The notes: generated from the sequence alone by a model not told the origin. A DNA stretch of 64,000 nucleotides from Lingula anatina (GCA_051362555.1 CM120642.1:29884001-29948000); one strand, 5' to 3'. Shown: positions 5,178 through 32,225, counted from the stretch's first letter. Made by a program: numbers and translations.

Positions 5178-8100
5178 TTATGGACATTGACCTCCACTGG
5201 CCTCCGAGAAACCCAAGTGCATTCTCAAAGTTCTGCCAAGTTCTAGAAGTCGCTCCATCTCGGCCTTGAATTTCCTTTCTTCTCTGGATACAATCAGTTC
5301 ACGGATTTCCTGGAAAAAAACACCCGCACAGTAGATTGAGCTGTTTAAAAAACGGATTTACTAAATAACAGCTCTGTTTTTAATTCGTTTTTTCTCTAAG
5401 GCACCAGCTTCGACCGACTACAAAATGCACACTGCAATCAAATTACCAGTAATTAAATATCCTGGGAAAAGCAAACTGGAACTGCCTGTCTTATACAAAA
5501 TTTAAGCTGATATACTGTTTACACGTAATGAATGCTATCAAATTAGACGATTATCCTTGAAGCTTCAAACTAATACAAAACAATCCAAGTGTCAATTATG
5601 GTTTTTGTTAATTGCCTAATTGGCAAAGATGTGTAGTCTCTTTGGAGCATACAGACCATACAAAGAAGAAGGCCACCCCACCCCCCCTCCAGAGAATTTC
5701 TCTTAAAAAATCAAAGGCAAGGCACACTTAGCCCCACAGATGTATATTTTGTGTACTCATTATCGCTTGGTGGAGGATCTAAATAAATAGGGTTTTGTAT
5801 GCGTAATTTTTTTCCTCATCCAAATAGATAATGTGGATATAAACATTGTCAAAGTGATTATGGGAAGATGATGTTGCATCACAAAGACACTGGGCGAATT
5901 AGCCAATTCCAAGCTGATGACATAACAGCAGCAGAAGATTGCTTTCAAACAGATATTCCTCACCCACACAGCTATCAACAACATTATAACACCTATTAAA
6001 TCACAACATGACTGCTAGAATCTGGTGCCAGCTAATTTTCTTGAAAGGCTTACATCTGATTTTATCAGGGAAGTGGTGAAACCCTTTGCATAATGGATAA
6101 GCTTAATTAAGGGCTCATATCTCCTAAACAGAAAGAGTCCAAACCACAGGCTGGCACTGGATTGTAGTTTAGACTGAAATCACCACCCACAATAGTAACT
6201 TACTTAGTTTTAGAGTTGCATCAGAAGCTGATCATTACATATATCACACAAATTTAAAGGCAGCAAAATGGACAATAAACACTTGGCCACCCTATGCACA
6301 GAAGCAGGGAGTTTGTGCTCTAAAAGTTTATATTTCTAATGCAGTTATATTAAGATAAGTATTTCACATAAAAGAAACTGAGAGCGTGGGGGGGGGGGGG
6401 GGAGGGAGGAGCTAGTTTAATATAAGGTATTAAACTCCCTTGCGGCAGCTCTCCCTTTCTTAATATCCTTGGCATACCTGTGTGTATAAAGACTTGGTTT
6501 TCCCTTCTACCCTCAAGAAACACCTCTCGTCTGAGGTCAGAAAGATATCCCCAGCTTTGGACAGACTCAACTCTGGAAATAGGACAACAAAACAAAGATA
6601 AGAACCAATTGCTAATAGAGATTAAAACTGCATGGTTACATATGTATCACTTTCATCTTGATTTAAGTCAAACATAAGGAGAAAGATAAAATGTAAAGAG
6701 GGGAAACCAAAATCCAACTGTGAAAAAAACAAAACAAACTTGCACCTGGTAAATGACCAGTGTAGTAGTATCAGGCCAGTAATCTCAAAGAGGAGTTCTG
6801 AAAATGTGGACACTTTCACTCACTTAGCCGACCCAACTTCAAAAATGGAATAGAATCCACATCAAATTTTGATTCAGAGCCAACCATTTTGGCAGTTAAA
6901 AAGACGGTCCTTCCAACCCAGCCCTGAAACCCCACCTAGCACTGTGCCTGAATACCTTTTAGGAGAAGACTGACAGCAGTAATTAAGTAAAAGGCCAAGA
7001 ATCATACGAAGTGGGAACAACTGATCTGAGTCACATCCTAAATGTCACTAAAATACAAGACAATATTTTCCATGCTTGTGATGTTAAGATATCCTACATC
7101 TTGAAGGATTTCCCTGCTGACTGTTGTAGTACATATGGCACCATGAAAAGGGTAGAAAATTAATATAAAACAAACAAGCTTCAACCACTTCTCCCAAGTG
7201 GTTTCTCTAAGTACTTTAGCATACACATTCCATGACAATGAGCATGGATCATTGCTTAAATAATTTTTTTGAAGTATGAACATATCTGATATACAAAAGT
7301 CTGCAATCTGTTTTACTTTATGAAAAATATTACAGGGTTATTTAACTGGTTACAGCAACTTCTGTTTTCATCATCAGTATCAATCACTTATTCAACCAAA
7401 TCACCAGGACTTCATCAAAGACCCAGCCTTGAATGTGTCCACCCACCTATGACACAGAAGTCTTTCACTGGTTTCCGTGTCTGTGGGTTATCATGACCGT
7501 CTGGATGAACTACGGGCGAATACAGCACCTCAAACATGGCGTGGCTCACTACGGGCGTGAACCTCTTCATGATGTCATCCAGACCGACGCGCAGACGGTC
7601 TCTCTCATCGCGGGATATCCTGATTCCCTGCACCAGGCTGTTTGTGTCGATGCCAAAGTAAATATGGCCCCCTTTTCCTGGAAGTAATCAAGTTATTTTC
7701 TATATATGTAACCTGTAACACAAGTGGGACTTTACCAAACCTGCTGTGGTGATGTCGCCAGCCAGTGTTTTAGCTAGTGATTGTATCCATAGCTTAACGG
7801 TGGCTTCATCAACAACTGGAACATTGAAACCATGATAATAAACTAACTTGGGAATTTGATGACATAATGCAGTTTTGATCATGTGAATTGCTGATGACAG
7901 AACAAATTTTTATTAACTTCACTTCATTGATGATAGCCTATAGAGCTTCAGCTTCTTTTTTTCTTATCTTTTCTATTTTTTTTTTTTTTTTTTTTTTTTT
8001 TTGAGATTGCTGAATGGAAGTACAGAAAGAAATACATCTAGCTTAACTCTCATCTTATAATTATGTTTGATGTCCACCTAAGAATTATTAATAGCCATGT

Positions 8101-11100
8101 TCCTGACAGTCTCAGAGTTTTCACGTGCTTGAACAAATAGCTCTTAGTTTCTGATGTACATTAAGATAATACAATGTGGTATTGCATCTTATAAGGTATT
8201 CTTTGGCCAGTCAAAATTGATCAGTTGGTTAGCAAGTGGCCACTTTTTGTTTTTTAACATGTGATGCAAAAGGTAAAAAAATAATAAGGTTTCCTCAAAG
8301 TGCGAGTCCCTCTTCTTAACCAATGTTTCAGTTTTGTCTGACCTTAGCCTGTGAGAGCTACTTTCTGCGTTGTCACTTGAGTTTAAATGTGCCACAATCA
8401 GTCTTTCACTGATATGTCATATGTTTTGTATCAATTTTTCATTTCTTACCTTGATTCATAAAACCACAGATTAGTTTCTCAACAGTTTTAAACATCACTT
8501 TTTTCACGTCTCTAGTACTCCTCAACTCATGAAGATCATCTTGCTTGAAGGAGACTTTCTGATCTGGAAAATGAGTTTATAGTATTAGCAAAGATCTACA
8601 TATTAAAGACCAACAGCAAAACTGATTACCAGATATCCTAATAACTTTGCCAGGACCACTTCACTTTGTTAGTTTTAAAAGTTCAAATATGAAATAGCTA
8701 CAGATATATAACTTTATATCTCTTCACAATTCAAGTCACTGTCTCAAGAGATAAATATAATATTTATTTTTTTGGTTATCTATTACTAGAAGGTTCTTAC
8801 CAATAATATTAATATATAGTGATTTCCTCAAAATTTAAAAAACAGAAAAATAAATGTTTTCTGAATATCCATCAAATAATGTATAAAATGCTCCTTACCT
8901 AATATATAATAGTTCTTTTCACTGAGCTCATACAAGGTAGCAGTATTCACTGGTTTGCTAGGGTCTGAAACAAACAAAAGCAACCTATTCGAGAAGAATA
9001 TATTTTTCTTACAGGTTTGTTTGAAATAAATATTTGTAAACAACATTTTTTACAGAATTTAATTCATGAACAGCACAAAAATTTCCCATACCTTTCTTCC
9101 ATATTCGTCAACAAAGCAGCAACCTTAAAACAACATTAGCCCTGAGAGCTTGTCTACAAGTCTACAAAAAATTGCATTTCCAGTTAAAATTTCTCAAAAT
9201 TTACCCAAAGTGGATTCAGGGACTCAGATCTGAACATGTTGATAAAAGCTACTTATTCTAATTTACAACGTACCTGGCAATGCAATGACTGGCAGTCCTC
9301 CAGCCTCTTCTCCTGAGGAATAGGTCCTGGCTGCAGAGTCATATATCTCATCATCACTGGAACTCTCCTGGAATTAGATATAGTAAATTATGGTACAGTA
9401 AGAGAAAATCATATGAAGTTACGGCATGGCATGGCATGGCATGGCATGATAAAGAATGGCAAAGAACTACATGGTATGGAATGCTACAGCAAGTCATAGC
9501 AAGTCATGACATGGTATGGCAAGTCATGGCTGTACGACATGACATAGCAAGTCATGACATGGTATGGCAAGACTTGACACAGTATGGTAAGTCATGGCAT
9601 GGCATACTACAGCATGGCATAATATGTCATATTATGATGGCATCGTACAGTATGGTACAGTAGAGAAAAGTACAGATTGTGATCTTGCCAGTTAAGTTAG
9701 GTTATACTCTAGGCTCACCTTGGAAAGATTTCTGCCAGCTAAAAAATGGTTCAAATCATTTTTGTTCCATTCCCATTTTTCTTTCAACATGGCCCTAAAT
9801 ACCCAAAATAGTAGTACATTGTACAATGTACCTGTAACAGCCTATCTCTGGATAGGGATCCCAGAGCTGGCTTTCTCTCAAGATCACTGTCACTTCCCCT
9901 CCCTCTCCTGATTGGTCTATCTCTGCTACAACTCCGCCCACTCCTGCTACTGCTGCGCCCTCTTTCTTCCCCAAGTGATGACGGAGATGCAAGGCAAATG
10001 TCAAGTAGGGCTGTTTGATCTTTTTCATCAGTATTCCTTTTTATTCTGTTAAATAAGAAATTTTAATTATTAAGCAATATATATAGAAATTCAAACTGTA
10101 TTAAGGTGGGGTTTCCCCAAAAGACAACAAAAACAAAAAGCAAACAACTTAAAAAAATGCAATATCCAATAGATTCTCTTTCTATGGGACACTTTGAATC
10201 AATTTAAGTATCTTACAGGAACATGACCCAAAGTTCATCACACCATTAACAAGGCAGCAAAGCTGTCAAATGTACAGACAAAAAACAGAAAAAAAAAGAT
10301 GCAAAATAGGTCATTATGTCAATTTTGATGCAATAATAAATGCTTATAAACGCACAGTCAGTCAACACTGATTTTTAATCATGCACAACAGGTAACATGG
10401 TCAATAACAGGAGCAGATTCAGAGATATTTTCTGACAGTATTCCAAAGTATCTTTGTTGATCCATCCTCCATTTTGATAGTCTTCCAACAGAAACCCGTT
10501 AATATAAACTGTAAAATCTGACTGTCTTCCAGGAGACCCAGAAGATGGTCTTAATCCACCCTTTCAATAAGATTACAATGTTAGGACCATGAGAGTTAAA
10601 ATTCACATGATGAAAGTCCCTATATATGAAAAATGATGACAGTGCATAAAATAATATTACATCGTGTTTAAAGACATAAATACCAATACAGCTGCTTATG
10701 TGGAAATACTGAAAATGTGCACAGCCTCAGGTGGATGGGAGTTAAAAATCAGATCTTAAAAATGCCAGTGTTGGAGAAAAAATTAAATAGAAACAACAAA
10801 AATATAATTCTAATGAAGCTGTTATTCACTCCTTCCTTATTATGGACACTATGTTATCTAGCAGAGAGCTTAACAGGGAAATATCAACAAGTGTGCTTTA
10901 TGAAATTTCAATTAATGGCTACTTAATTAGGTAAATGAGTTTATAGCACTGAAATTAGCCTTGTGAATACCCAAGGGGAATTAACAGACTGACCACACAA
11001 ATTTGTCTATCAAAGGTCTTCAGGCCCATAAGTCACAACTTAAGAAAAGCAGAAAACAATAATGCACAAAAACAGGAGACTGCCCAATTCTGATGCAATA

Positions 11101-14100
11101 ATACATTATGTTTAACTGCACAGTCAACATAAAATTTTAATTATGCACAACAGGTAACGCTAATGAAAGTAAAAGCATAAGGCTCCAGGCCCATCAGAGT
11201 TCAAGTTTTCAATTAGAAAGTGCCAGAATGAGAAAAATGAAAATTTCACAAAAAATGCATAAATTTAATAAAAATGATGACCCAATTGACCTGGCTTTCT
11301 AATTTGAACTGCATGCCAATCCTAAAAATCGTACTTATAAGTTAAATATAATAATAAGTAACACAGTTTTCTTTTCATAATGTTTGCAGTAGCAGTGCAA
11401 AAAGATTATTGTCAATTTTGATGTAACATTACATAATAAATTATAGAATAATTATCACCAATTTTTGATTATTGACTATAAATAGCATGGACATGTAGAA
11501 AATTTGATTACCATTAGGCTTCATGTCCATGGGAGCTCTGAGTCCCACAATGAATATGCCAAAAAGATAATGAATATTTCACTAAGTGTATAACTTCCAG
11601 AAAAAGAAGCCAATTAGACTGCTTTTCCAACTCGGGCTGCATTTTAGTCCTGTGTTTCTTTTTTGAAAGTTTGACAGTAATAAGTAACACCGTTTTCCCA
11701 TAATGGTCATCATGGCAGCAGCACCAAATATTGTGTTTTCTTCTATTTTGATGCAACATTACATAATGCTTAACAGCATAATGACCATCAATTTTAAATG
11801 ATAAAATATACGTGTCATGGATTTTCAGAAAATGTGACTAGCAAGGGTCTTCAAGCCCGTGGAGGTTCTAAGTCGCACCTTGAAAATGTCAATAAGTGAA
11901 AAATTAAATTTTCACAAAAAACTGTTAAATTGCCAGAAAAATTTACCAAACAGACTGCATTGCCTACTGAGGCTGTATGTTAGACCCATGTTTCTTTCTT
12001 GTAAGTTTGAGAACAGCAAGTGACATGTTTTCCCTTAAATGGTCATCATAGGAGCAGTGCCCTAAATAGGGGTTTCTTCAAATTTTAATGCAACGTTACA
12101 TAGTGTTTAACAGCATAATAACCATCAAATGTTATTAATAAAATATTAGTAACATGGACATTCAGAAAACATGACAAGCAAAGGTCTTCAGGCCCATGGA
12201 ACTTCAAAGTCACATCTTGAAAATGCCAAAATGTAAACAAGACAGCACTGTCCTGAAATGGGTTTATTTCCATTTTTAACACTTTTTTAACATAAAACAA
12301 AATAAACATTTTACTGCCATTTTTATATGACCAACTAAGAAAATTGATGAGATGGGAAAAGTATCAATAGAACAGTGTTAAATGTCCAATTTCCTCCATT
12401 CTGAGATTCTGAACATAGTGGATGATTGAATCTGACAAACTGCAATGATATGAGTTTATTTCCATTTTTGACACTTTATTACACAATACATGATAACAAG
12501 TTTACCATGTTTTTTTACATAATCAACTAACAATGTTGTAAAGATGCAGGAAATATCAAACAAACACTTTTACACATCTAATTAGTTCAATAATGAGACT
12601 GTTAACATGCCTAATAATTGAATCTGAGGAAATGTGAAAAAACAGTATAACTTCTAAAATAATGGCCCGATTATGCTGATTTTCGAACTCAACCTGCATT
12701 TTAGTAAGATTGACCACTCCTGTGAATATAATGCCAATTGGCCAACCCGTTTTTCTTATATTGTGTTATCAGTGTTGCATTTATATTGAAAAGTGAAAAA
12801 ACAGCATAAATTCCCTAAAAATGGCCCAATCATGCTGATTTTCGAACTTGACCTGCGTATTAAGAATTTTCATCAGTTCTGTAAGTTTCAAGCCAAAAGG
12901 TAAAATGGTTTTCCACTTACTGTGTTATCGGTGCTGCATATATGCTGAAAAAGTGAAAAAACAGCATAAATTCCCTAAAAATGGCCCAATCATGCCGATT
13001 TTCGAACTTGACCTGCATATTATGAATATTCATCAGTTCTGTAAGTTTCAAGTCAAAAGGTACAATGGTTTTCCACTTATCGTGTTATCGGTGCTGCATA
13101 TATGTTGAAAAAAGTGAAAAAACAGCATAAATTCCCTAAGAGTGACCCGATCATGCTGATTTTCGAACTTGACCTGCGTATTATGAATATTCATCAGTTC
13201 TGCAAGTTTCAAATCAAAAGGCAAAATGGTTTTCCACTTATCGTGTTATCGGTAAAAGTGCATGGCGACGGCGACGACGGCGACGACAGACGCAGATGAT
13301 GGCTATATGTACAGACACATCTGTGTCTGTACATAAAAAGGTAAAAAAACTTAACTTAATTTAAGAAAACCTAACAAGCCAAAATGCATATTTCTATATA
13401 TTACAGCGACACAATAAAACTAATGGTTGTATAATGATTAAGTCAAAAATATATATTTAATATATTTCCATTAAAAAAGCACTAGAGATAGGAAAGCAAG
13501 TCCACTGTACCTTTCCCTGGCTCTTCCCACTCTTCTGTCCCCACTTTCCTGCCTTAGGTTGGCACTGCCTGTAAAGGTTCGAAGGACCTGCATCAGCTTT
13601 GTCTTAACACTCCCGTCATCTAGAGAAGACTCCAACTGCAGCAGTGCTTGGATACCTATAAATATATATATAAGCAATGTTCATTAGTTTGGTAGTTGGA
13701 TCATACAGATTTATTATTGGCAGAAGCCGAATTTTTTTTATCACACTGAGTTGGCTGTAAGATAACAGTAACAAAAAAAATTCAGCTTTTGCCAAATAAT
13801 TATTGCTTATATATCACACGCAGACACTTGTATGTACATATTTCAATTTTTTGCATTGGAGGTCACAAAACAGATGGCTAAGATGCATTAAGAAATCCGT
13901 GCATGAAGCTCAACATATAAATACCGAGTATATATAAAAATAGTATGATCTTTATCAGAATCAGAATTTTTATCAGACCAGAATCTGTTCAACAGTTGAA
14001 TTTTATACATTCATGCAATACACATGTTAACATATGTCTTTAATTTATGGGTAAAAAGATGGAGATAGGTTACCCTTCAAGTAAGCAAACATCTTCTTGT

Positions 14101-17100
14101 TGGCAGCATTTCCATACAACAGGTTATTTAGTGCCAGCAAACATTTCTCTAATACCTGTTCTTCTATGGCATGGTCGGCACCGGATATATAACTATGGCA
14201 CATATCTATGAAATCATTAAAATAGGTCTCAAATATTTAATTTAATCATATATTAAAATGTAGGCCTCCATATTGAACAGACACAGGCCAAAATGATCTA
14301 GTTCCCATTAGTCGTGAGAAAAAAATTATTACCGTCAGACTATACATTCTTTGAAGACCAGTTATTTCTTTGAATGGTACTCAAATGATTATAAAATAAT
14401 TTAAGTTTTCAGGCGACACAGCATGACAGTTACAGATTACATTTCCATCAACCATTATTAGTAACAAAAAGTGGCAAAATGTTTCATGGTTAACAAAACA
14501 GATGTTTCAGAGTGGTAATAAAGAAATTACCAGATGTCTCAGTTACACTTTTAAAAGGTTGTGATGTGCTATAACTACCTATCAAACACTGCAAGCCTCC
14601 CAAACTTGCAACCTTTTCCCTCAGACTCTGCTGTTTTCCTAGATTAATCAGGACTTCCAGAGCTTTTTCTGCTATCTTACCATCCGGCACTCTTGTGAGG
14701 GGCAGAATAACTCCCATACCCCCATCAGTGAGTACAGCGCCACCTATAGTAAAAAATAATAATAAATCACTGTGACCTTTTTTTAATCCAAAGCTTTCAA
14801 TTTCAAGTAAAGGGATAGATATAGACAACACCATGTTAGCAATTCAATATTTAAGCACCAAATTTTATTCCAGTTAATTCTTATTTAAATGATCTTACTT
14901 TGTATTGCAGCAATAGTGAATCATAGGAATATCAAAAGGAATCAATATATTTATATCCATTTTGTCATATAAATGACTCTGTCTAAAAGATTCGTATTTA
15001 TTCAAGTAATCTTAAGTTACTGAAAATTTGATATTACTATATATTAAACAAACAAACAAACAATCATGGTTCATTCAGAAAGTCTCTCACCTAGAACATA
15101 TTTCTCCTGGCATAGATTGCACAGTGCTCCTAATGTGTTGGCAAGAAGTTGATTGCTGATAGGTGTAGGTCCTACTCCTTGACAGAAATAAAAAACTTTG
15201 TATGAATTATTTTTCAGAACCATATTTTGACAGATTCTATAATACAAAATCTGCCCTTATAGAACATCAGCCTGTTAAAAATAGCTGTCTTTAAATCTCT
15301 GTAAAGAGACTCCAAATGCCTGCAATAACTACACCACTAGCCTAGGATAATAATCCTGAATCAGTTATTTAGTATACTATCAAGCTTCTCAATGTAAATG
15401 TAGCTGCATGATAATAAATTCATTATATCTGAATTTTATATTAAAATTTTCTACGAACCTTTTAGTCTACACAGGGTTGCCTGTGGTGGGATTTTGCCCA
15501 GGTTCATCTCTTTAGTCAAGTAATACATGTCACTCCAGGGTACCTTGCTGACCACGCCATGATCCAGGACATACACTGAACACACCTCGTCTCTCACCCT
15601 TAATATCTGCATGGAGAAAAATAACACAGCTTATGTCTTTATATGAAAAAATATAATATCTTGTTGAAAAAATATTACAATTAAAAATAATTTATTCAAT
15701 GATACTAAAAAATATAATATACAATATAACAATAGTTTCATAGTGAATGAGCCCTTTTGTCACTGTCACTCATGTCCCCCCACCTGTCCACGGCAGTGTC
15801 CCATCCCATCCAATGTGACACACACAAACTGGCCAGGTTCTGGAGCCTTTTTCAGTTTCACCCCTTTGCTGTCTACTTGCTCTGCTATTGTCTTCTGGAC
15901 TTGTTCTACTGTGCTCAGAGTGTCCAATCCTCCCACATATGCCATGAAGTACTGAGGACTGATGACATGGCTGACTCTGATATCCAACCAGTCATCTGTG
16001 CTCTCTGGGATATCCTGAAGAAACACAGGTTTATTATAGCTGTGCAGTCAAAGGGATTCACAAATTTGCGAACTTAAAATAAATGATTGTAAATATGATG
16101 GTAAATATGACAACAAATATGAACACTTATGCATGTTCAACTTGATGTATTTTTGGGGAAGAGTTGAAGTCCTAATTAACATACTGAAGTTAAGTCAGAA
16201 GTTAAGCATGTACATGTAGTCGTATGTTTACATGCAATTTTAATAATATTGTTTTTTGTTATCAATCTTTCATCAAGCAATTTTACCTTTATCTCAACAC
16301 CTGACACCAAATATTCTGATTGGGAAATTTTCTGATTCTGCTCTTTCTGAGTATTTAAAGGAGGCTTTATCTCTGGCCATGCAAGTCCTCGCTTTAGCAT
16401 TTCCTCTTTTACTACAACATCAATGGTTTTATCAGTGGTATCGTAAAGTTCAACAACGAAAGATGATGCAGACTGAAGTATGCTGTTGGAGTCACATTTT
16501 AGGTACTGGGAAAGTATCTCCTCTTTCTCTCCATCAACAAGTGGTGATACCTTGCCAATTAGGTCTTTTCCCTTGGTAAAATTTCTTAAGAAGCTTACAG
16601 CTTCTGGATGATATGTATAAAAATACAAGTTCTGCATATCTGCTATCTGCAAAAGCAATTTGATCAGTCCGGCTTTGAGTATTTGAAACTGGTTGTATGC
16701 CTCCCCATAGGAGAGTTTACGTAACAGCAGCACCATCTGCTCCAGATACTGAAGGAGTCTTATATGACTAGAAGATTCCAAGTCTGGTAGTCCATCTCGA
16801 CATATGTGTGTGCATGTGTTCCAAATGGGCCTTAGAACTTCCTTCTTGACCACAGCCACCTACATTATGTTAAACATAGAGCTGATATAAAATCAGGACA
16901 AACTGAGGCAAACACAAATTCATTAGGTATAAGGATTATATCTTACATAAAATTCAGGTCAGCAATTGCATATATATGAAATAGATTGCAAAAAAAAAAA
17001 AATAATAATAATAATAAAATAATTGGAATCACTGATATAACTTATTTTTTAATGTAAATGACTAAATAAACAAACGACAGCATCTCACAATAATGTATCA

Positions 17101-17440
17101 TTTTACTTTATTAACATGATTCCAACAGTAGGTTCCCATTACGACACTTCTTCTATTGAAGCATACTGTTTTTAACAGAAACTTGCTGTACTGGTACTGG
17201 TACCTTTGTATCTGGATCATTATGGCATAACAGGCTTAATAAAGCACATGCCATGGTCTTCAGTGACAACATGTAGTCCACATTCAGCATTGTAATTAAC
17301 TTCAACAACAGATTCTGTGGGACAGCCTCTGGTTTTCCAGAAGTAGAACAATACTGGATCATTTGCTGTACTAACTGAGCTAGCTTCGTCTCATTGTTCT
17401 CCTCTATGATACTGTCTGATAGAGTGACAAACGAAGCCAT
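5178..17440 (-). CDS. 865-aa multidomain protein: ARM-like repeats, permuted extended Tudor domain, RG/RS linker, C-terminal Schlafen AlbA_2 (SLFNL1-like) domain
   Basis: 14 coding exons, all GT-AG and phase-compatible, 2598 nt in total: 17440-17204, 16859-16287, 16014-15784, 15606-15459, 15177-15091, 14743-14579, 14205-14074, 13655-13511, 10045-9832, 9367-9274, 8563-8450, 7677-7447, 6572-6478, 5309-5178 (TAA). ARM-like motifs: ACALLSLLC, LGALCNLC, AEKALEVLINL, SLGGLQCLI, LLALNNLLYGNAANK. Tudor motifs: VSHVISPQYF, PEPGQFVCV, VYVLDHG, IPPQATLCRLKGV. Schlafen motifs: HELR..KLICGFMNQGKGGHIYFGIDTNSLVQGI..DRLRVGLD..FLRVEG. AATAAA on the - strand at 4638-4643. Confidence 0.85.
9421..9660. repeat. 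Degenerate pentanucleotide (GGCAT/ATGGY) repeat in an intron
   Basis: ggcatggcatggcatggcatggcat followed by decayed 5-mer variants. It generates the spurious ORF 9436-9663. Confidence 0.8.
10250..13335 (-). mobile_element. Non-autonomous Helentron-type element (HINE/DINE-like) carrying tandem repeats
   Basis: 5' end on the - strand: perfect 14-bp inverted repeat TATGTACAGACACA-tc-TGTGTCTGTACATA (13306-13335) next to a T-run, followed by a CGT/CGC microsatellite (13265-13290). The matching subterminal repeat ATGTACAGACA is at 10270-10280, with a short hairpin (10253-10267) and a CTTG-TT end. Internal ~160-bp tandem units at ~12630-13255 and older degenerate ~330-bp units at ~11050-12230. Confidence 0.75.
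13712..13800. mobile_element. Short palindromic MITE-like element
   Basis: ATTATTGGCAGAAGCCGAATTTTTTTT ... AAAAAAAATTCAGCTTTTGCCAAATAAT imperfect inverted repeat. Confidence 0.45.
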
Positions 17441-18004
17441 TGGATCCCTGTATTTTGTCAGAGCAAGCAACAGACCCAAAAAGCTTACATGAGAGTAGGA
17501 ATTACATGTATATGCATAACACTGACAGAGTTATGGCAGTCTGTATGTATGCAGAATCCACATACATTGTGCGCTTACTACATGGGTATATAAATCCATC
17601 TGAAATGACAATCAATGACAGTATTAGCGGATGTGACAGTATGATAGTGCCAATAAATTGGTTTTCTCCAGCTTAGTGTTCCAGGACTTCTGATGGACTA
17701 TCATCAGCGAGATATCATTCACAATCCGAAAGAGATGAGAAGGCAATTTTCATATCTGTTCAAGAGCTTTCGTTAGCCGAAGATCGGGAGCAAGAGATAG
17801 TTTCCGACCCTAGCTAAAGGAGAAGGTAATTTTCGTATCTATATCTTCAGTGGGAGATCCATCAAGATGCAAGCGTAATGAGAAAGCATTTTTCATATCC
17901 GTTCAAGAGACTTTGTTGGTGGAATATTGAAAGTCGGAGATCGTTCGCGATCTGTGGGAGACAAAGAGCAATTTTCATATTCATTTAAGGGAGTTCTTTC
18001 GTGA

Positions 18005-19404: not shown

Positions 19405-19529
19405 CTTCAAATCACTGTTAAGTGTTTTCACCGCTGCCAGGCATTAGGCCCTCAACCCGAACTTCTCAGACTTCGGAGACTCCTGGAGTTCTAAAAACCA
19501 TAGTTGCCATCTTCTCTTTATCATTTTAC
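19405..19529 (-). other. Probable 5'UTR exon of the ARM-Tudor-Schlafen gene
   Basis: Acceptor tttcatag| at 19530 and donor AAG|gtaa at 19404. All three frames contain stops. The next acceptor is at 17448, 7 nt before the ATG. Confidence 0.5.
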
Positions 19530-19599
19530 CTATGAAACAAAACTAATCAAAGGTAAAATCTGTGAAGATCAATTTTGCGAACTACATTTTAACAAGCAA

Positions 19600-19872
19600 C
19601 TCCATGATTCTTGTGCTTCAAATTTACCACACCACCAAAACCGGAAGTGATAAAGAAAAATGTATAATTTACAGGCAGTGATATTTGACATACTTTTGTT
19701 TATGTTCAATTTTTTCAGATAAAAATACTTATCAAGTTAAATAAATTTATTGTTGGAATAATAAATGTTTCTCCGGATGAGAAATCCGTTGTTTTGTAAA
19801 GAAAAAATTCGGAGGCCGAAGCTACTATTTCCTGCGCAGTCTCATGCGCAGCTTTACACAATAAACCAAATC
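19600..19872. promoter_or_regulatory. Bidirectional promoter between the ARM-Tudor-Schlafen gene (-) and PSMB7 (+)
   Basis: Divergent gene starts within ~350 bp. ETS/GABP motif CCGGAAGTG at 19641-19649 and NRF1-like TGCGCA..CATGCGCA at 19832-19850. Confidence 0.65.
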
Positions 19873-22800
19873 ATGGCCGCACTTGCTGTGGATCCTCCAA
19901 GAGGAGGCTTTTCCTTTGAAAATTGCAAAAGGTGAGACACATAGTGTTACCTGCACTGACACTAGCCTGTCGGTCAATATATTTGGAATCGAAAAAATGC
20001 CTCACATTTAAGGATTTATTGTTGTCACATTTAAATAAGATCTATTTACTTGTGGCCACACAATGATATGCAAAATCTCGAAAAATTGCTAATAATAATG
20101 TAGTAACTAATAATAATGTAGTAACGAAACTTAGTGATACTGTGTTTGAAACTGTCACCTTACAACTCTCAAGCATCCACGATGAGGATGGAATTTTTGT
20201 GACAAGCATTGTCATTAACCAACAAAAGTGTGCTTTTGTGAAATTGGTGAATACAAATCTTTGTGGAACGATCAGTCACACATTTTTTTTTTCTAGAAAT
20301 GCTTTGCTTGCACAGAAAGGTATGAAGGCTCCAACTGCATACAAAACTGGAACAACTATCTGTGGAATAATATTTAAGGTTTGTGCATTGGCATTCTCTT
20401 GTGTGTTTGTGTTTGTCAGAAACTGTTTTGGTCAAGTGTTGGTGATTTCTGTGCTTTACCATTATTGCATTGTGCATCTTCTTTCAATGTCATATTTTAC
20501 CTGATTTGTTGTTAAAAGAACAGAAGTTTTTATCATGTTAGTACTAGAAAAGCAATAAATATTTTAAAAAAGTTTTTTGTTAATGAAATTAGAGAAAAAA
20601 TAAAAATAAAACTATGTATATAGTGTGCAAATATTTGCTTATTTTATGTTATTTATTTTATAAATTTCTTTACAGGATGGTGTAATTTTAGGAGCTGACA
20701 CAAGAGCTACAGAAGACACCATTGTTGCAGATAAAAATTGTTCCAAAATACATTTCATAGCTCCAAATATATAGTAAGTCATCATGATGAAATTAAACTC
20801 CAAAGTAGTGATGCTAAATATGTTTAATTATAGTACATTGTAAATAGTTCTTCATGCTTTTAAGCTTAAAAGCATTCCAAATTATATTTTACATAGTAGG
20901 ACTCGTCAGGTATTGAAGAAATTATAATCACGTTAGTTTCAGTATCTGGAAATGCATGAATTTTTCATATGAATATGATGAATAATGAATTCATTAAAAT
21001 GTTTTAATTCAAATGCAGGAGCATGGTATTAGATTAAGCACATGGATTTTGATCTCTTAGTAAATGTTATTAAATTGATGATATAGCATTAATTGAAGAT
21101 CATAAGTAATTCATTATGATATATATTCTAGCTGTTGTGGGGCAGGGACAGCAGCAGACACAGAGATGACCACTCAGATGATCTCGTCTAACCTTGAACT
21201 CCACAGACTGAACACCGGGAGAGTGCCCCGCGTGTGTACAGCCAACAGGATGCTGAAGCAGATGTTGTGGAGGTAGGCAGAAAAAGAGATTGTGCTGAAA
21301 TCCTATCCATGCAGGCTTGTCAGAATGTAAAAACAAATAAAATGTCAAATAAAACGTAAAAGTAATATTTACTCTTTGTATACGTACCCACAATCACCTA
21401 CAGTGGTGCTGATTTTGAAAATTGATCAAAAGCTGTTGAATAATGGTCATAAATGTGCATAGCATTTATTATAACAGTGATGAAAGTACTTCCTGTTTAC
21501 CCATAATTGTAGATATTTCAGTGTTGTATGTATGTATGTTCTTCTGGCCTCCGTAGCTGTTGTCTTGGGTGCTTGCTTTTTCTAATTTTTATTTTTTTCA
21601 ATGACGACTTTTTATCTCTGCTATCAAGTCCATTCTCAGTCTGATAGTCCTGCTTACTTATGTTATGTTGATAAAATCATAGAACATTAAGTCATGGATA
21701 TAAGACCCTCTTATGGGGTCATTATTTTCTACATTATTACACATGAACACGTAAACACACACATGCGCACACACACATTGTATTGTCGTTTTGGCTTTCT
21801 AGCCATCAGCTATATATGTATTAATAGTATTTATGGTGCTGTTGTGTGTGGTTTTAGGTATCAAGGTTATATCAGTGCAGCATTAGTTCTGGGCGGGGTG
21901 GATCCCACAGGGCCCCACCTCTACAGTGTCTACCCTCATGGTTCCACGGATAAGCTGCCATATGTAACCATGGGTAGGGCAACCATTCTGTTGTTATGAT
22001 ATTGATTAATATGAAACAGAATTATAGGTGATAACTTAGAGATTTGATTTAATGCAGACTATGACTTGTAAAAGGAAACAGATCAGAGGATTTTGTTGGT
22101 CTGAACTTATGTCTTTGCAATTTTTTGTAAGTGGCAAAGTATGTCATTGTGTGTCACAAACCAATTTGTCAATCTATGGACCAAAGGCATAACCTTTTTG
22201 CTATTGTCGTGTTGGGTCAAAACACGGTATTTGAAATGTCTCTGACGGGACATTTTAGAGACAATTTTAAAAATTACAGTTGGTAAACGATCCACATGGT
22301 TACTTTTAAATACATTTTTATTTAGCTGGACCATAAAGGATTATGTAAAACAAGCAGCTAATTTGTATTGAAATTAATGTGGGAATGACAATCACTTGAA
22401 GGTCTGTCTCTGACGGGACATTTTTGACCCCTGTATTTTTTTACTAAAACTCCAATGCAAAATTCTCTTTGAAATTTCATTTAATCAAGACTTTTGTGAT
22501 TCATATTGCAAGGTACAAGTCTTGGGAAGCAATTAATGCACAAACAGGCCAGTTTTGTTTACTTTCCTTGGCAGCATGGGCTGTTAAGTGTAAAAAGTCA
22601 CTGTCTCTGACGGGACGTCTCTGACGGGACACTTTTGGGCACTAATGAAAAATCTTAGAAAAAAGGTTTAAAAAGTCACACATTTGTATCTAATGAATCT
22701 TACTTGATGGTTATTGCAAAATAGCATTTCTGTACATTAGAAAAATCACCAGATGCAATATGTTTAGAATATTAATTAATTATCATGACACAGCGATAAG

Positions 22801-25732
22801 GCACAGTATAATTTTCACATAATCCACTGTCCATTACTCCTATTTCTCAATATCAATCAACATTTTCCATGATAGTTCACATGATAAATCCTGTTTTTCA
22901 ATTAGTCTTAGAACACATATCTTTTCTGCACTTTAGAGATTTTTTCAACCAGTCACATTAACAGGTGATGGAAACAAGTAAAGTCCACGAGTGTCTATGC
23001 TAGACATTGGAAGGACTTCCTTTGCATCTTTTATGGGAATCCATGCTTTGTTTTCTGTGGCAGGGTACACAAAGTTTCTTTTGCCAGAACCTTCAGTACG
23101 TAAGAAACTGACTTCCACTTCGCCATCTTCAGTGTCATGGGTGACCTAACCTAAGAATTGTTTTACTCCTTTCCTGGCAGCAAACTCCGAAATGACAAAA
23201 TCTCCCTGGTGAGACTGAGCTGTGCCTTGACCGACATTGTCATAGTGCGAATGTGCAGGCAAATCAAAGTCCCCAGTCATATGAATAAGTTTAGCATATT
23301 AAGAGGGTTGCTGGTACAAAGAATTGGTTGACACAAGAACATGTCCATGGGGCTAGGGCTGAGACTGAAGCTGTTGGAAGTGTTGAATTCCTGGAACAGA
23401 TGGACAGTTTTCCCAGCGACTGCTGATGGGTGCGGTAGCTGCTACAATATCTTCTGCAGACAGGTACATTATGTTGACATTGGGGCATAATTCTTTGCCA
23501 GCCAAATAGAATTGATAAGGTGTATCTACAACCATTTTTCTCTGGAGCACTGCTCTCCAAACCTGTCATTTCATTTTCCCTACGATCCCATCCACTGGTT
23601 CTTTGCCATGGGCAGTGGTATAAAAAGAACCACTGCGCTTCCATACCAAAATCTGTTTCATGATAGTACCATGTATAGACAGTAAAAACCAACTTTTGAA
23701 TTGACTGGGGGCTGGGCTCCGTCTGACCAGTAATGGACTTTGCTGAATGATTGCTGGTGTTGGAGGTCTTCGAGAATGGCCTTATTACAAGTGAAGACAG
23801 CCTGTTTGTTATGGTGCAGATCATCAGATACCACAACACATGGTTGGAGCTGGAGGTCTCCTTCAGACTCTGTTCTAAATCATGCACATGCAGTGAACAT
23901 AATGACCTGCTCACAGTTCTAGTGCTCTGACATGATCTCTGACGGCACATGTCAACACCTAATCACTGACAGTCAACCTAGCTAATAATCAGTAATGGTT
24001 AATGAATTACCCAGTAATGATCAGTTGCAAAAGAAAAACAAGAAATGTAACACACCAGAACACTTTAATTGATTCAATTGAAGATGTAAAACCTTGTGTT
24101 TCACATCTGTCAGAAAATGTCCCGTCAGGAACAGAAAATGTCCCGTCAGAGACAACGATAAAATGTGGCAATAAATTCACTGTAAATTGTTTTAAGTTTG
24201 TAATTTTTAGCTATAATCATTACTTATCATTATTTAAAAGAGGATTTTAAGTTTCATTTATACAACCTACCAGATGTGGAAAATATGAAAACTTTTCGAA
24301 GTCAAATGTCTCTGACGGGACACACCACTCCTTGTGCTAAATAATTTTTTACTCAAAATAAGTGATATGTGGCAGTTTTCTATGTTAAACTATTACTTCT
24401 GATTAGTTTAACATATTTGGTTGATAAAAACTTGAAAAAACAACCTAATATCTGACTCAGGCCAATATGACCATGTGTCCCGTCAGAGACAATTTTTTTT
24501 TTTCATTTTTGTTTCCCAGTGGCTCACAGAAAAAGTACTGGGAGTATATCAATGAAACTTACATTATCTGAAAATTTGATTTGTTTTCTACAAAAATGTA
24601 AAAATTTTAAATTTCAATGAGACAAAAAAAAATTTGACACCCATGGCACCGTTACCGTGTTTTGACCCTGTTAAAGATTTTTTATTTTTCTATATGAATT
24701 GGATTTGACATCAATTTTTTACCCACTTTTTCAGGATCTGGGTCCTTGGCTGCTATGTCAGTATTTGAATCAAGATACAAGCCTGATATGGAGGTAAGTA
24801 GATAGGAATTCGCTGAGGTCCAAAAGAAAACAAATACATGTATAATTGCAAATATATATTTTTTAGTTAATTGATTTAACTCTTAGATTTTTCCATTTTT
24901 CTTTGATGTATATAACTTGTTTCACTGCATTTTCAAAATTTCAACACTGTTTGATTTTAGCCTCACAAATAAACAATAGAACACACTTGAAACCATGATG
25001 ATAATAATATACAGTCAGAGGCAGATTTTCTGTTCTGTCATCCAGCTGTTGTTTTCTCCTCAGCAAGATAGCAAAAGTGTATGACTTGTCTTCAACATTC
25101 ATGCACCCACCTTAACTTAACAAAAGTCATCATTGGCTATTCTGCCTTGGTATTCCAGAAAGAAGAAGGAATGAAATTAGTGCGGGATGCTATAGCTGCA
25201 GGTATTTTTAATGATTTGGGCTCTGGCAGTAATGTGGATTTGTGTATTATCACCAAAGACAAGGTGGATTATATCAGACCTTATGATGAAGCTAATCTCA
25301 AGGGAAAGAGGTAGGTTGACAGTTATTTGTTAATTAATCGACTTGGATGGTTTGAATATAAAATGAAATTTGTCATTTTTTACACCAGAAAATATAATTG
25401 TTTGTTGAATGAACAAGGATTTTTCTCAGAATTTGGTACATTAGCTATATTGCAATTTTAATTGCAGAAAGAAATGATTCAGGGGCAGTTTATTAGGATA
25501 GGAATCATTAAAAAAAGAATACACTGGGTCTCACACTTAGGCTCAGTTTAGTTAGTTATAACGTCGACTTCATGGTTCATGAATTGAACAAAATTTTTGG
25601 CTGATTATTTTCAGACAAGGGTCATACAAGTACAAGCCAGGCACTACAGCAGTCTTGACCAGTGAAGTGAAGCCTCTCGAGTTGGAAATACTGGACACTC
25701 AGATTGTCTCTGAGCCTATGGAGGTCTCTTAA
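19873..25732 (+). CDS. PSMB7: Proteasome subunit beta type-7 (beta2), 274 aa
   Basis: Exons 19873-19931, 20297-20378, 20676-20773, 21132-21272, 21858-21973, 24735-24793, 25159-25310, 25615-25732. Propeptide [11 protein letters not shown], processing site KTG|[48 protein letters not shown] at 26114-26119. Confidence 0.97.
22214..24668 (-). mobile_element. Decayed cut-and-paste DNA transposon, Sola2-like, in PSMB7 intron 5
   Basis: Perfect 16-bp TIRs GGGTCAAAACACGGTA (22214-22229 and 24653-24668), 4-bp TSD TGTT, and multiple subterminal TGTCTCTGACGGGACA motifs. GRG termini plus a 4-bp TSD fit Sola2. Confidence 0.8.
22930..23920 (-). pseudogene. Frameshifted, 5'-deleted transposase remnant
   Basis: Motifs across frames: [39 protein letters not shown], then [17 protein letters not shown]. 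Interrupted by stops and frameshifts. Confidence 0.75.
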
Positions 25733-26809
25733 GGGAAAGAGCTTTACTTCCATAACATTCATGTATCAAATACCTTGCATGTGTGCAACACCTACAGAAG
25801 AGTAACCATGTGACAAGTTTTATAACTTCAGAAGTTTGGAGATCTATGTATTTGAATGATGTGTCGGTGAAAAAAATGAACACGCAGATGATTAAGTACT
25901 GCTTTACAGTGCAGTGTGAAGTCTTTCAATGAAAAATGCTTGACAGTAAATGTTAGGACTGGGGCACATTTCCTTAATTAAATGCAGTACGAAGCCTTGT
26001 GAAATTTGAATTTTTAAAAGAATTTCAGAGAAAGCATCTATATTATTCTAGATGAGAATTGAGCAGAAGTCAACACCCGTAGCTTATTATTACATTTTTT
26101 GTACTAAATGAACAATAAATATTGTATTAAAATGTATTAGTCTGGCTTTGAAGTCATTGTCTGCATTGTTTTTAACATTCACACCATAAAAACAAGTTAC
26201 ATGTTTTTTTGCTTGTATGTATATTTGTGTATAATTCCATCAGGAATTCTAGTTTGAGTGTTGCTACTCAGTACATGTATAAGTATCTACATGATCTTTT
26301 TGCTGAAAACAAGCTACAAATAAAGTGCAATTTTGCCACTGCATGAATGAAAAAGGGTCCATATTTTCATTTTATTTACTTATTTAATTTGGATCAATTT
26401 TTGAAATTAATGATTCAGAATACGTTGAAAGAATGTCAGTTTTTCTCTCACCCTAGTGCACCTGCACCTAATTTTTGAAGTGTAGCAGATTCTTAGCATG
26501 TTTTTTATTTATCAATCATAATAAAGTTTATTGGTATTTCATTAACAGGGACCTATGAATGGTTTCTGTTAACCTCTTTCAACCCAAATAAACCTCCAAA
26601 ACATCATAAACTAGCTTAGGTGGTGTAAGGAGTTACATCACTCCTTGGTTGTCGCGAAATGAGGATAACCTGCATGAATCAGATATGCCAAAAGGAGATG
26701 CAAAAAAGACAGAAATGTACATCAGCTTAATTTAATTTCCTTAATGTAATCAATGTAATCTATCTTTTACATTAATGGTAACAACTCGTTTTCGTTCCGC
26801 CCAAGGAAA

Positions 26810-27037
26810 TATAAACCGGAAGTCCAAATTTTACTAATGACAAGCATTGCATGCTGGGATAAGTTGCTTGGCATCTAGAGGAAGCGGAGGTGAAACAAGT
26901 TCAGAGAAAATCTTTTGGGCTGAACTTTTGAAAGGCCAGGCCTGTAAAATAAGTTTGAGGAGGGCAACGCCAAACGTTGCACTTGGATTTAACGTGCAGT
27001 ACATCATTCCTTGCGCAAGATTGTACTTGACTGTCAC
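26810..27037 (+). promoter_or_regulatory. NEK6/7 promoter and probable non-coding first exon
   Basis: ETS motif CCGGAAGT at 26816-26823, locally higher CpG, donor CAC|gtaagt at 27037/27038. Confidence 0.5.
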
Positions 27038-28008
27038 GTAAGTAGGTTGGGCAAAAAAATCAAGACAGTCGCCGACGGTCTGTCTGCCATCAATCATATC
27101 GATGACTGTGTGTTGTGATTCTGATAGACTGTGAGTAAATTAAATCTAAGCGGCGACATTTTGGCTGTATAAGTGGTGTGATACTCGATAAAAACAGAAA
27201 GAATAAAATCATAGTACCTTGTTGGTATGCACAGCTACGAACTACTGAGTGCGGCATTGCAAAATGAATCATCAATATTATAATTGATTCAATCATTCAG
27301 CTTTGGCGTCAAATCTGTCAATGTAAATCGTAATCAAAATTCCCAGGCATCTTATGTCACCTGTGTTTTATCAGGATAGCGATTTTGATTATTTTTAAGC
27401 CAACAGCGTGACAGATAGATCCAAATCTTGAACAAATATGTCATTAAATATAGTTTGGCTAAATTTGCTCTAGTCTTAACTTAGAGCTTTAAGTGCAGTT
27501 AATGATGCATGTTATCAGATTGAACTTAATTGAACTCTTGGTTATGATAGCAGTGCTGTGTTAAGGATTTATATTTCGCTTGAGACCAGTAAGCTTAGCA
27601 AGTGAATGAGTGAGGGGGTGGCAGTTGAAGGGATTATTTATTTATTTATTTATTAAGTTGATTTAATTTTTTTGCGGATTATATATTTTATTGAATTCCA
27701 TTCTCTACAGCTCTGTTGGTATTTGTTCATTACAAAATTCCAAACTGACAAGTTTGTTTCCACTATGAAGAGTAATTCACTCTTGAATGAGTATGTTTTT
27801 AATGTGTAAAATGTGTCAGATTTGTTAATGAACAATTGTATGATGAAGATTTATTACAGGTATCGTATGTTTTCAGTTTTGCCCTGTATTGTTTTCATTT
27901 GGTATGATTTTATTTCAGTTCCACAAGGGTATTAAACTTTGATTTTCAATATAAATAAGAAGAATTTTTGAAATAACAAAATGAGTGACAACTTTCAGAA
28001 TTTTCACC

Positions 28009-31000
28009 ATGGCTGAGGAGGCAATGGAGACAGAGGTCTATGAAGGGGTGCAGCAGCATCAGGATGACATCTATAGCAGGCTTGTCAACTTTGAAATAGA
28101 AAAGAAAGTTGGCCGGGGCCAGTTCAGTGTTGTTTATAGGGCTGTGAATAAAATCAACAACATACCTGTTGCACTGAAAAAAGTCCAGGTATATTGACAG
28201 TAGGCCAGACTGTACATAGGCAGTAGCAGGTCCCCTTTTTTGTGTGTTTTGAAAGCTGTTTTTGAATGAGCTTAAAACCTTGACCAGGTGGGCAATGTGT
28301 TTTGAAACAAGCTCAAGCTCATCTTATTTTTGAATAGGTGAAAAAAATAATATGTATGGAAAGTTGGTTGGAGTTTTAATAATTACATAACATTGCCTAT
28401 TATTCAAGGTTAGAAATTTAGCCAAAAGCAGCATAATCTGATGTGAGAAAGCACTTTTTAATGCTGAGAAGTTTGACATTTTCAGCCCATTTCGTTATGG
28501 CACTTTCCTTTCTTTCAACAATGTGAGAAAACAGTCTTTCTTGACAAGTGGCCCATGGAAAAAGTGCTTTCTTTCAACAGCATTCTTTTGAGTAGTTCAC
28601 AATAGATTGGTTTTGATTTTTACTGGTCTGATCAATATTAACTCTTGAGTGTGTGTCTTTTCTCTTTTTAGGTTGTCAGTAATGTACGGTGTGTTCAGTA
28701 GATAGAAACATATTTCTACCTAGACTCAGTAGTGTTGGAATGATATGACATGAAGTTGACCTTGACACTGTGACCTTGACCTTGACCTCTGATCTGTAAA
28801 TTGAAGTAGTCACCATGGAGAGTATGGAGTGTGACCTTCCCGTCCCCACCAATGACCCCAATAACATGTACTGCACTCTGTCAAGCTTTGAGATTGACAA
28901 AAAGATAGGCAAGGGTCAGTTTAGTGAGGTGTGGAGGGCAAGATGTAAGACAGATGGCAGTGCAATTGCCCTGAAAAAAGTGCAGGTAAGGAAAACCCAT
29001 GCTCTGCCATTAAAAAAACTGGGGGTCTTACAATAGTTAACAAACTAAAGGCTATAGGTTTTCCTGTGATTCTTATAATATTGCCGTGCAGTTTGATTTG
29101 ATCTTGTTAATCAAAAATTTTTTTTTAATTTTGCAATCATTATTAATAAACATTTTGGTTTTGTATTCATTCTTTGGTGTATTTATGAAAAAATTCATTG
29201 CCTGACATGTAGGTTAGCCTGTGTTCTCTACTGATAAAATCATGCATGGTAAATAAATCATAACTTTTTTTCTGAAGCTTGCAGAATGAAATGAATAATT
29301 GCCTAGAAAGTTTTGCATCAATTTGCCATTTACAATCATTTATGTAGATGAAAGTTTACAATATATTGTGTGTTGAACGATTGGGCCATGTCAAGTTTAT
29401 TAAACTGCTTCCAGTCGCACTGAGAGACTGAATCAATGTATTGATCACTGGTGTTTCACGCCTCGCCCTTTCATTAATAGAATTGAATAGTAAAGCATAG
29501 CGAGCTTGAAATTCAATAACCTAAGACATTATAGACTGAAAACAACAGTTTGACTAGAAGGATGGCTTTGATCATTTAGACCATTATTTCTTGTTGAGTC
29601 AGCTGACATAATGTTTTCTCAAGTTGAACTTTTTTCTTTGTTCCATATTTAGAAGAGACTGTGGTGTTGTGTCACTTGCTTGTATTTCCTAGACAAGTCA
29701 TTTTGTTTTACTTTTTTTTATTACTTTACTTTTATTTAAAGTTAAAATATCCTTATTTGGATTTTAAAAAATGAACATTTTAAAACTAAATTAGCCATAT
29801 AAAGACACTTAAGGAACATGGATAAGATTTGTACGTACCTTGTTTCAGAGGAGCTTGGTTTCACTAGGCATTTAATACAAAGGAATAAAAATCAGATATA
29901 TATTGGTAATTGATAATGAGATGTTGTGTCATTTATATTGTTGGACAATCAACCTGTGCCAAACATGAAAAACTGAAATGTGGATTACAGCTTACTTATC
30001 AATATCACAAACCAGCAACATGAATAACACATAGCAGTATGATCTTTTTACAAGATTGAATATCAGCTGGTGTTCAGCATTATATATATTATATATAGGT
30101 TAAACTTTAAAGATTTTGTTCTGAACTACCTTGTACTAAGCATATTGGGAACTGGGACAGCTATTATACTTATTATTACAAGATTTTTTTTTTTTTTTTT
30201 AGGAGAAAAATTGGATTTGAACTGTAGCAATTCTCTCTCAAAAAGATATAACAAATATAGGCGGTCATGGGCTTTTCAAACTTTGAAGGAATTCAATCTT
30301 CTTGTGACCTTGTTACCTTACCAAATGGCTAAGTTAACTGTTTCAGAAATTTTCAGACAATAAGTCAATCTCATTGCTATGTTTGTGTGAAAAATGACAT
30401 AATAAATAATCCTACTAGGATTTTGAATCATTCATTAGATTAAAACCCAGTAGTAGTCAATTGATTTCATTTGGACCAGAGAAATGTTGTATTGGATTTG
30501 GCTGGCACTTGCTTGCACTGCTGTATCACTATTGTTATGTCTCGTATTATTAATGTGTGTTTTGTTTTTTATTTGCACTGTAAATCACTGCTCTATCTTA
30601 AGTTCATGGGTAAAATTCACCCTCAAGATAACTGATATAATTATCATATGAATAAGCTATAATTATAATGTTGTTAAACTAAGAATGTAGGTGAGATCAG
30701 TTTAACATATTTAATAACTTGTAATCATAAGTGTTGGATTTGAAGCAATTTGTATTGATTCTCTATATGTTAAAAATGAAGCCTGCTACCTAATGTTGCA
30801 ATGTTCATTAGTATATAAAATAACTTGGAAGTTAAATGGTTGCGAAAATTGTATTTCGGTGCTGTTTATGTCTTTATTGATCCATTCAGATATTTGAGAT
30901 GATGGATGCCAAAGCCAGACAAGACTGTATCAAAGAAATAGATCTGTTAAAGGTGAGTATGTGTTATTGAAAATGGCTGTCTGCCTAATATTGAAAGAAG

Positions 31001-31188: not shown

Positions 31189-31220
<32 letters not shown>

Positions 31221-32162: not shown

Positions 32163-32225
<63 letters not shown>

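Follow-up and report, generated by a model that had tools for sequence, protein, structure and literature searches.

The locus considered here lies on the minus strand of a 64,000-nucleotide (nt) stretch of Lingula anatina DNA (GCA_051362555.1 CM120642.1:29884001-29948000; this whole stretch is called the window, and all coordinates are positions within it). It raises two questions: whether armadillo (ARM) repeats, an extended Tudor domain and a single C-terminal Schlafen fold are encoded there by one gene, and whether the product would be an RNase tethered by its Tudor domain, as the initial annotation proposed. RNA joints, Pfam profiles and homologs from across the animals confirm the single gene with all three modules. 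However, the tethered RNase finds no support, most of the residues with which SLFN11 cleaves RNA being lost and the Tudor lacking the aromatic cage for methyl-arginine. The architecture taken together with the loss of canonical catalysis is held with high confidence.

One gene and an animal-wide family

The initial annotation had chained 14 exons into a reading frame of 865 amino acids (aa). All 14 are present, every intron is GT-AG, the phases are compatible and the translation has the expected length. The chain is completed by an additional coding exon of 66 nt (8964-8899, phase 1-1), seen in database proteins P0002, P0003, P0004 and P0005, which encodes the beginning of the Schlafen domain. 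Because this exon is present in database proteins and because RNA reads skip the 335 nt from 8563 to 8899 (46 reads in run X1 and 49 in run X2), the corrected product has 887 aa and 15 coding exons. The RNA evidence comes from reads of seven of the nine listed runs bearing the same species label; these reads are short, each joint being seen separately and not within one full-length molecule. Of the 14 introns that separate the 15 coding exons, 12 are covered by these reads, with the strand as expected in stranded libraries. The introns 9274/8964 and 6478/5309 are not among the joints listed, but both are present in RefSeq XP_013412693.1.

The closest named proteins are XP_013412627.1 (361 aa) and XP_013412693.1 (453 aa) of L. 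anatina, with 96% identity to the model. RefSeq assigns them to two genes, and the database model P0002 (824 aa) unites both halves. The two-gene reading was rejected because reads span intron 3, the site of the RefSeq split (87 and 59 joint reads), and also the 3465-nt intron 8, where 69 and 113 joint reads link the ARM part to the Schlafen part. These last reads likewise argue against the Schlafen exons (8563-5178) forming a separate gene. Also rejected was an assembly artefact or exon scrambling behind the unusual order of the Tudor halves described below, since reads link exons 1-8 in order and the homologs have the same order. In exons 3 and 6, P0002 uses alternative splice sites that are absent among the RNA joints listed. 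Upstream lies a non-coding first exon (about 19630-19405), which 4 and 10 reads connect to 17483 (joint 17481/19405), and in-frame stops precede the ATG (17440). A near-identical copy of the 3' half of the gene, P0004 (LOC106178740), sits on another L. anatina contig, which is probably an allelic scaffold. Intron 8 is full of transcribed dispersed repeats between 10246 and 13340, including tandem units of 160 nt and 337 nt.

Pfam recovers both of the expected profiles on P0002, TUDOR at 7e-8 and SLFN_AlbA_2 at 2e-6. For the ARM repeats, Pfam gives ARM_ARMC5 at 2e-5, a score under the curated cut-off, and their assignment is strengthened by the solenoid in the predicted model discussed below. 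The RG/RS-rich linker proposed for this protein is real in Lingula, although it is not a conserved property, as at least three RG/GR dipeptides are found in only 3 of 37 linkers.

A phmmer search with P0002 against 1.84 billion representative sequences gave 306 matches, the best 150 of which were analysed onward; by comparison, word-indexed homolog searches returned one protein each, and an Atlas search with the whole protein gave no usable match. Eight of ten full-length matches looked up could be named (Branchiostoma, Saccoglossus, Owenia, Liolophura, Solemya, Elysia, Babylonia and Acropora), and all eight are annotated as uncharacterised or hypothetical. These full-length relatives span coral, annelid, molluscs, hemichordate and amphioxus, and therefore the family likely originated in the cnidarian-bilaterian ancestor. 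No human, Drosophila or C. elegans protein is known to have the ARM-Tudor-Schlafen architecture.

For the analysis of domain order, 149 sequences (148 matches and the model, after five Lingula records and eight cluster-mates were dropped) were scanned with five segment profiles. All five segments occur in the same order in 28 of the 149, 27 of these 28 being the training set of the profiles, and the domain order is fixed across phyla. A separate family of short ARM-Tudor proteins was set aside: the matches of 306-442 aa mostly end no more than 20 residues past the last strand of the Tudor. These ends coincide with the position of a phase-1 intron in Lingula, and thus the short matches are likely gene calls that read through into the intron. 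Among the divergent unnamed members (P0040, P0061, P0073, P0077, P0079, P0116 and P0130), some carry long low-complexity extensions, and in P0040 the Tudor insert appears eroded. Also, ten unnamed and mutually divergent Schlafen domains (P0045, P0056, P0064, P0041, P0053, P0091, P0085, P0072, P0057 and P0119) form a clade with support 1.0 inside the family, which suggests a lineage-specific expansion or fast evolution.

The claim that no protein of this architecture has been characterised holds within the literature searched: no description of the family was found in what were mostly titles and abstracts and non-subscription papers. The main text of a survey of holozoan Tudor proteins (PMC12147562) lacks the terms Schlafen, AlbA, armadillo, permut and Lingula, and, in their available parts, PMC9256597 and 10.1101/2024.01.12.575368 cover vertebrate and viral Schlafens. 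Then, all the component folds are known, and what appear to be undescribed are the fixed architecture, the likely permutation of the Tudor and the family-wide catalytic loss.

Catalytic positions of the Schlafen fold

The AlbA_2/Schlafen fold is recognised by Pfam above the cut-off (PF04326) and by profile matches in the Protein Data Bank (PDB) to SLFN11, SLFN12, SLFN13, SLFN14 and SAMD9 (E 4.5e-8 to 1e-4). The likeness to these proteins is that of the AlbA_2 fold. However, the Lingula protein has one such fold and not two lobes, and it is without helicase or NTPase; its single Schlafen fold ends the protein, with RNA-supported last exons and stop, and neither a two-lobed core nor a SWADL linker is present. 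Another comparison is with vertebrate SLFNL1, also with a single C-terminal Schlafen fold (Atlas TM 0.77) and described as testis-enriched in the accessible part of PMC10567574. Nonetheless, SLFNL1 retains the catalytic residues according to the portion available of 10.1101/2024.01.12.575368, unlike the Lingula family, and ARM or Tudor domains are not described for it in the portions available. The initial annotation had noted a close parallel to the SLFNL1 motif, but a special kinship is not demonstrated: there is no difference in score between SLFNL1-like, RRM-Schlafen and bacterial clusters (Atlas TM 0.73-0.78), and SLFNL1 is not closer to the Lingula protein than other AlbA_2 clusters.

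In an alignment with SLFN11, whose register was set by the E209A chain 7zep, residues E209, E214, K216 and D252 correspond to Q705, E710, R712 and T747 of Lingula. As far as the accessible text of PMC9482658 goes, E209, E214 and K216 are essential in SLFN11, unlike D252, and a Schlafen that lacks one of these three has no activity. For Avs9, D45 is required (PMC12680541, seen in part), and from its spacing this residue may occupy the D252 position.

The family set comprised 48 Schlafen domains accompanied by an ARM or Tudor segment, 45 of them scorable for E209, E214 and K216, and the comparison set 75 Schlafen-only matches, 42 of them scored. Family members keep E209 in 4 of 45 cases, E214 in 33 and K216 in none, so that all three are found together in 0/45, compared with 24/42 for the Schlafen-only matches. 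D252 is kept in 0/46. When the four residues are considered together, 36 of 44 family members keep one and 8 keep none, whereas all four are present in 22 of 41 Schlafen-only matches. This contrast is understated, because according to the tree the Schlafen-only group includes probable family fragments. With at most one of the four residues kept in 44 of 44 members, canonical Schlafen catalysis has likely been lost in the family, and the protein would be a pseudonuclease rather than a tethered RNase.

An explanation nearer to the idea of the initial annotation is that of an RNase active through a rewired site (D706, H709, E710, D762 and D769) and tethered by the ARM and Tudor parts. Across the family, these residues reach 74-98% conservation, and Lingula carries an arginine, R712, at the K216 position. 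However, D706, H709 and D762 are equally conserved in the outgroup with intact sites and thus likely structural. Considering also the counts given above for E209, K216 and D252, and the inactivity of Schlafens without one of the essential residues, a rewired nuclease is quite improbable.

The preferred pseudonuclease, kept from coral to amphioxus, suggests that an active partner or an RNA ligand exists. The Schlafen fold also has conserved basic residues (R761, R765 and R833). A homodimer prediction for the Schlafen domain of P0006 scored 0.10 and gave no answer. Among the other matches, the unnamed Schlafen-NTPase proteins P0139, P0112, P0141 and P0149 keep intact E-E-K sites; P0149 (2478 aa) combines GCN2-type RWD, kinase and HisRS-like domains with Schlafen and NB-ARC, being either a real fusion or a mis-joined model.

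The extended Tudor and the armadillo solenoid

Profile and fold matches place a Tudor barrel flanked by SN-like elements in the middle of the ARM region. Fold matches to Tudor, TDRD1, Tudor-SN and Papi have Z scores of 14-15 and root-mean-square deviations (rmsd) of 2.4-3.3. In the model of P0105, the latter part of the insert corresponds to the opening ~120 residues of extended Tudors (116 residues aligned to 4q5y, with Z 14.8 and rmsd 2.4; Z 14.5 for 3nth). Where a normal extended Tudor continues with its C-terminal half, the barrel runs straight into an ARM helix. On the other hand, the first part of the insert shows a helix-strand-strand-helix arrangement and an LYDT motif, as in the missing C-terminal half, with the SN-like helix first. 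The profile agrees with this assignment: Papi 147-220 is aligned with positions 154-233 and TDRKH 166-194 with 204-233, at weak scores of ~5 bits each, and positions 245-364 align to the N-terminal parts of both chains.

The half resembling the C-terminal part lies ahead of the N-terminal half in 52 of 52 sequences that carry both, 25 of them outside the training set, and hence the canonical order (N-terminal half, barrel, C-terminal half) is found in none of them. Single-sequence searches with Lingula segments give the same order, and one with the leading half against the PDB returned nothing relevant. A circular permutation of the extended Tudor, with its C-terminal half placed first, is thus likely from profiles and models, and the two halves are predicted to form one domain. 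Moreover, sequential alignment by Foldseek covers ~101-128 columns on single extended Tudors, 205 on the tandem Tudor 10-11 (rmsd 11.7) and 203 on the multi-SN Tudor-SN. These longer alignments fit a capture from a tandem Tudor array by the duplication-and-truncation route set out in PMC13552848, whose main text does not contain the word 'Tudor'. No earlier description of a naturally permuted extended Tudor was found in the literature searched, as far as its available text extends.

The methyl-arginine cage was scored in 61 of 66 Tudors that could be anchored. An aromatic residue occupies D-2 in 0/61, and N or D is found at D+3 in 5/61; these we take to be the cage positions, and the alignment rows of TDRKH and Papi fit them. 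By this sequence count, the cage is degenerate family-wide. Compared with the TDRD scaffolds (Tudor, TDRD1, TDRKH/Papi, Tudor-SN and Vreteno), the likeness is a Tudor barrel within an SN-like fold (Z 14-15; E ~1e-11 to 1e-9). However, in the Lingula family the halves are swapped, the domain is inserted in ARM repeats, the cage is lost, and Pfam found no KH, RRM, LOTUS or MYND domain.

The structure considered for the solenoid is an AlphaFold2 model of P0006, the closest full-length homolog (35% identical; 41-row alignment), with a mean predicted local distance difference test (pLDDT) score of 82.9 and disorder limited to the linker. In this model, three-helix ARM repeats are stacked as a solenoid. 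Its residues 2-540 match 6s9p, a designed armadillo protein without interruption (chain 4-285), over 278 positions with an rmsd of 2.6 Å and a Z score of 28.1, and the two ARM blocks are therefore predicted to form one solenoid that holds an insert of ~240 residues. The C-terminal repeats carry conserved asparagines at 417 (21/27), 459 (22/27) and 508 (22/27). An asparagine ladder binds peptide backbones in importin-alpha and beta-catenin. With these and the other armadillo peptide binders (Vac8 and the designed ArmRPs), the protein shares a continuous solenoid (Z 23-28) and the asparagine ladder in helix 3; however, a 240-residue domain is inserted within one repeat and only ~300 ARM residues are present.

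The solenoid could also be taken as the functional core of a structural scaffold outside RNA biology, for instance in cilia or sperm, with the Tudor and Schlafen folds as inert modules for protein binding. This would agree with the degeneration of both RNA-pathway modules and with fold neighbours that include the axonemal ARM proteins 7n6g, 8j07 and 9e5c. Nonetheless, matches like the axonemal ones are to be expected of ARM repeats in general, two RNA-pathway folds have been kept together, and the basic residues of the Schlafen fold are conserved, which leaves such a scaffold with a low probability.

Possible roles and genomic surroundings

Taken as a whole, the protein would be a scaffold without cleaving activity in an RNA pathway of germline or stem cells, for instance the processing of PIWI-interacting RNA (piRNA), a reading by analogy to which we give a probability of about 0.45. 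In such a scaffold, the asparagine-lined ARM groove would grip an extended peptide of a partner, and the cage-less Tudor would bind a second partner without methyl-arginine, as the Tudors of TOFU-6 and Vreteno do. The dead Schlafen fold would bind RNA or pair with an active single-domain Schlafen, like TOFU-1 with TOFU-2 in PUCH. In the available part of PMC10567574, TOFU-1 is a single Schlafen fold with no identified catalytic residues, which assembles with the active TOFU-2 and also binds TOFU-6, on the SN surface of the latter's cage-degenerate extended Tudor. Also, Vreteno binds a partner outside its cage (PMC10711660, consulted in part).

The comparison with C. elegans PUCH/PETISCO (TOFU-1, TOFU-2, SLFL-3/4 and the TOFU-6 extended Tudor; accessible part of PMC10567574) rests on single Schlafen folds, some of them non-catalytic, and on the coupling of a Schlafen protein to a cage-degenerate extended Tudor. 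With only one Schlafen fold, the Lingula protein falls under the definition of SLFL given there. However, the Lingula family, outside nematodes, has both modules in one chain with an ARM solenoid and a Tudor that is likely permuted; moreover, neither a SPRY domain nor a transmembrane helix was found in the Lingula protein, and the likeness is one of analogy. A bolder and doubtful extension is that the protein belongs to an ancestral PUCH-like Schlafen nuclease complex as its non-catalytic, Tudor-fused subunit, and that the permuted Tudor of this subunit was captured from a tandem array and inserted in the ARM solenoid. If true, Schlafen processing of small RNA would date to the cnidarian-bilaterian ancestor and would not be a nematode invention.

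Several points weigh against the non-cutting scaffold and its permuted Tudor. E214 is retained in most family members and the acidic residues D706, D762 and D769 are conserved, which leaves some probability to a rewired site. The leading Tudor half alone is insignificant against the PDB (TDRKH at E 1.4, below chance matches to CD2), and Pfam SNase reaches E 0.077 in 2/23. With the cage lost, the customary connection between Tudor and PIWI proteins is gone, and the analysis gave no sign that the protein is associated with PIWI, nuage or gonad. No partner with an active Schlafen fold came to light in Lingula, where no genome-wide search for one was made. Finally, tissue-restricted ARM proteins are often ciliary.

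On the other hand, the protein could be a regulator of immunity or stress, its dead Schlafen fold binding tRNA or restraining active nucleases of the Schlafen or SAMD9 type, and its ARM and Tudor parts acting as sensors. The AlbA_2 domains of Schlafen and SAMD9 proteins are antiviral translation nucleases according to the available text of PMC12680541, the relatives include many Schlafen-only matches with intact sites and NTPase domains, and expression varies from sample to sample. However, the protein itself is without an NTPase, helicase or TPR sensor domain, a single architecture is fixed across phyla, and its extended Tudor is nearest to piRNA-pathway Tudors and Tudor-SN; this makes the immune role unlikely.

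The gene belongs to an old family of animal proteins, which annotation lists as uncharacterised and in Lingula divides into two genes. It offers a natural example of a likely circularly permuted extended Tudor, and it couples Schlafen folds to a module of germ-granule type outside vertebrates and nematodes. The question of whether Schlafen folds served small-RNA biology before immunity, raised for SLFNL1 in the accessible part of 10.1101/2024.01.12.575368, now becomes approachable in corals, molluscs and amphioxus.

Table 1. Features of the ARM-Tudor-Schlafen gene in the window, from the transcript start to the stop.
Feature	Position	Strand	Basis
Non-coding first exon, start near 19628	19405..19630	-	Joint 17481/19405; molecule ends at 19628 and 19867
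Coding exon 1, ARM repeats (aa 1-79; ATG 17440)	17204..17483	-	Joints; helices in the P0006 homolog model
Exon 2, first part (aa 80-156), ARM repeats until the insertion point	16629..16859	-	Profile and fold alignments
Exon 2, second part (aa 157-243), likely C-terminal half of the extended Tudor, placed first	16368..16628	-	Weak profile alignments; secondary structure
Flexible linker (aa 244-270), likely bridging the former Tudor termini	16287..16367	-	pLDDT 56-58 in P0006, <50 in P0105
Exons 3-4 (16014-15784, 15606-15459; aa 271-396), N-terminal half of the extended Tudor and barrel, cage degenerate	15459..16014	-	Pfam TUDOR; fold matches; cage counts
Exons 5-8 (15177-15091, 14743-14579, 14205-14074, 13655-13511; aa 397-572), ARM solenoid resumes	13511..15177	-	Joints; solenoid alignment; Asn 417/459/508
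Exons 9-10 (10045-9832, 9367-9274; aa 573-675), disordered linker, R/S-rich then acidic	9274..10045	-	Joints; homolog pLDDT <50
Exon 11 (aa 676-697), start of the Schlafen fold	8899..8964	-	Database proteins; RNA skip
Exon 12 (aa 698-735), Q705/E710/R712 at the places of SLFN11 E209/E214/K216	8450..8563	-	SLFN11 alignment
Exon 13 (aa 736-812), Schlafen core, T747 at the place of SLFN11 D252	7447..7677	-	Pfam SLFN_AlbA_2; alignment
Exons 14-15 (6572-6478, 5309-5178; aa 813-887), end of the Schlafen fold, conserved C-terminal helix, stop	5178..6572	-	Joint 6572/7447; read depth; RefSeq P0003

The gene start (near 19628) and that of a PSMB7-like gene (near 19867) are arranged head-to-head, ~240 nt apart. 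Relative to this neighbour, the mean number of joint reads per intron is 0.66 in run X2, 0.38 in X3, 0.025 in X5 and 0.038 in X8, a 10- to 26-fold difference in expression between samples; X1 is also high, and X4 and X7 are low. The three high runs come from one study, study and tissue being confounded, and the data show only that expression is sample-specific. Despite their adjacent starts, the two genes differ strongly in sample specificity.

On the plus strand, 19870-35350 holds by Pfam the proteasome beta-subunit gene and, after it, a gene for a NEK6/7-like kinase. In human, NEK6 and PSMB7 lie next to each other as well, and the adjacency suggests an old microsynteny. Within an intron of the proteasome gene, broken reading frames on the minus strand (22948-23962) look by eye like a transposon remnant, three pieces being without a Pfam match. 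Farther along, a gene at ~39800-46800 (+) was judged by eye to be 2OG-Fe oxygenase-like, the exon tested having no Pfam match. The other genes recognised by Pfam are a single-reading-frame FKBP-like/TPR gene (38244-39134, minus strand), a fatty-acid desaturase (~48110-50395, minus), an MFS_1-like transporter (~54430-57001, minus) and a C-type lectin (~62077-62864, plus).

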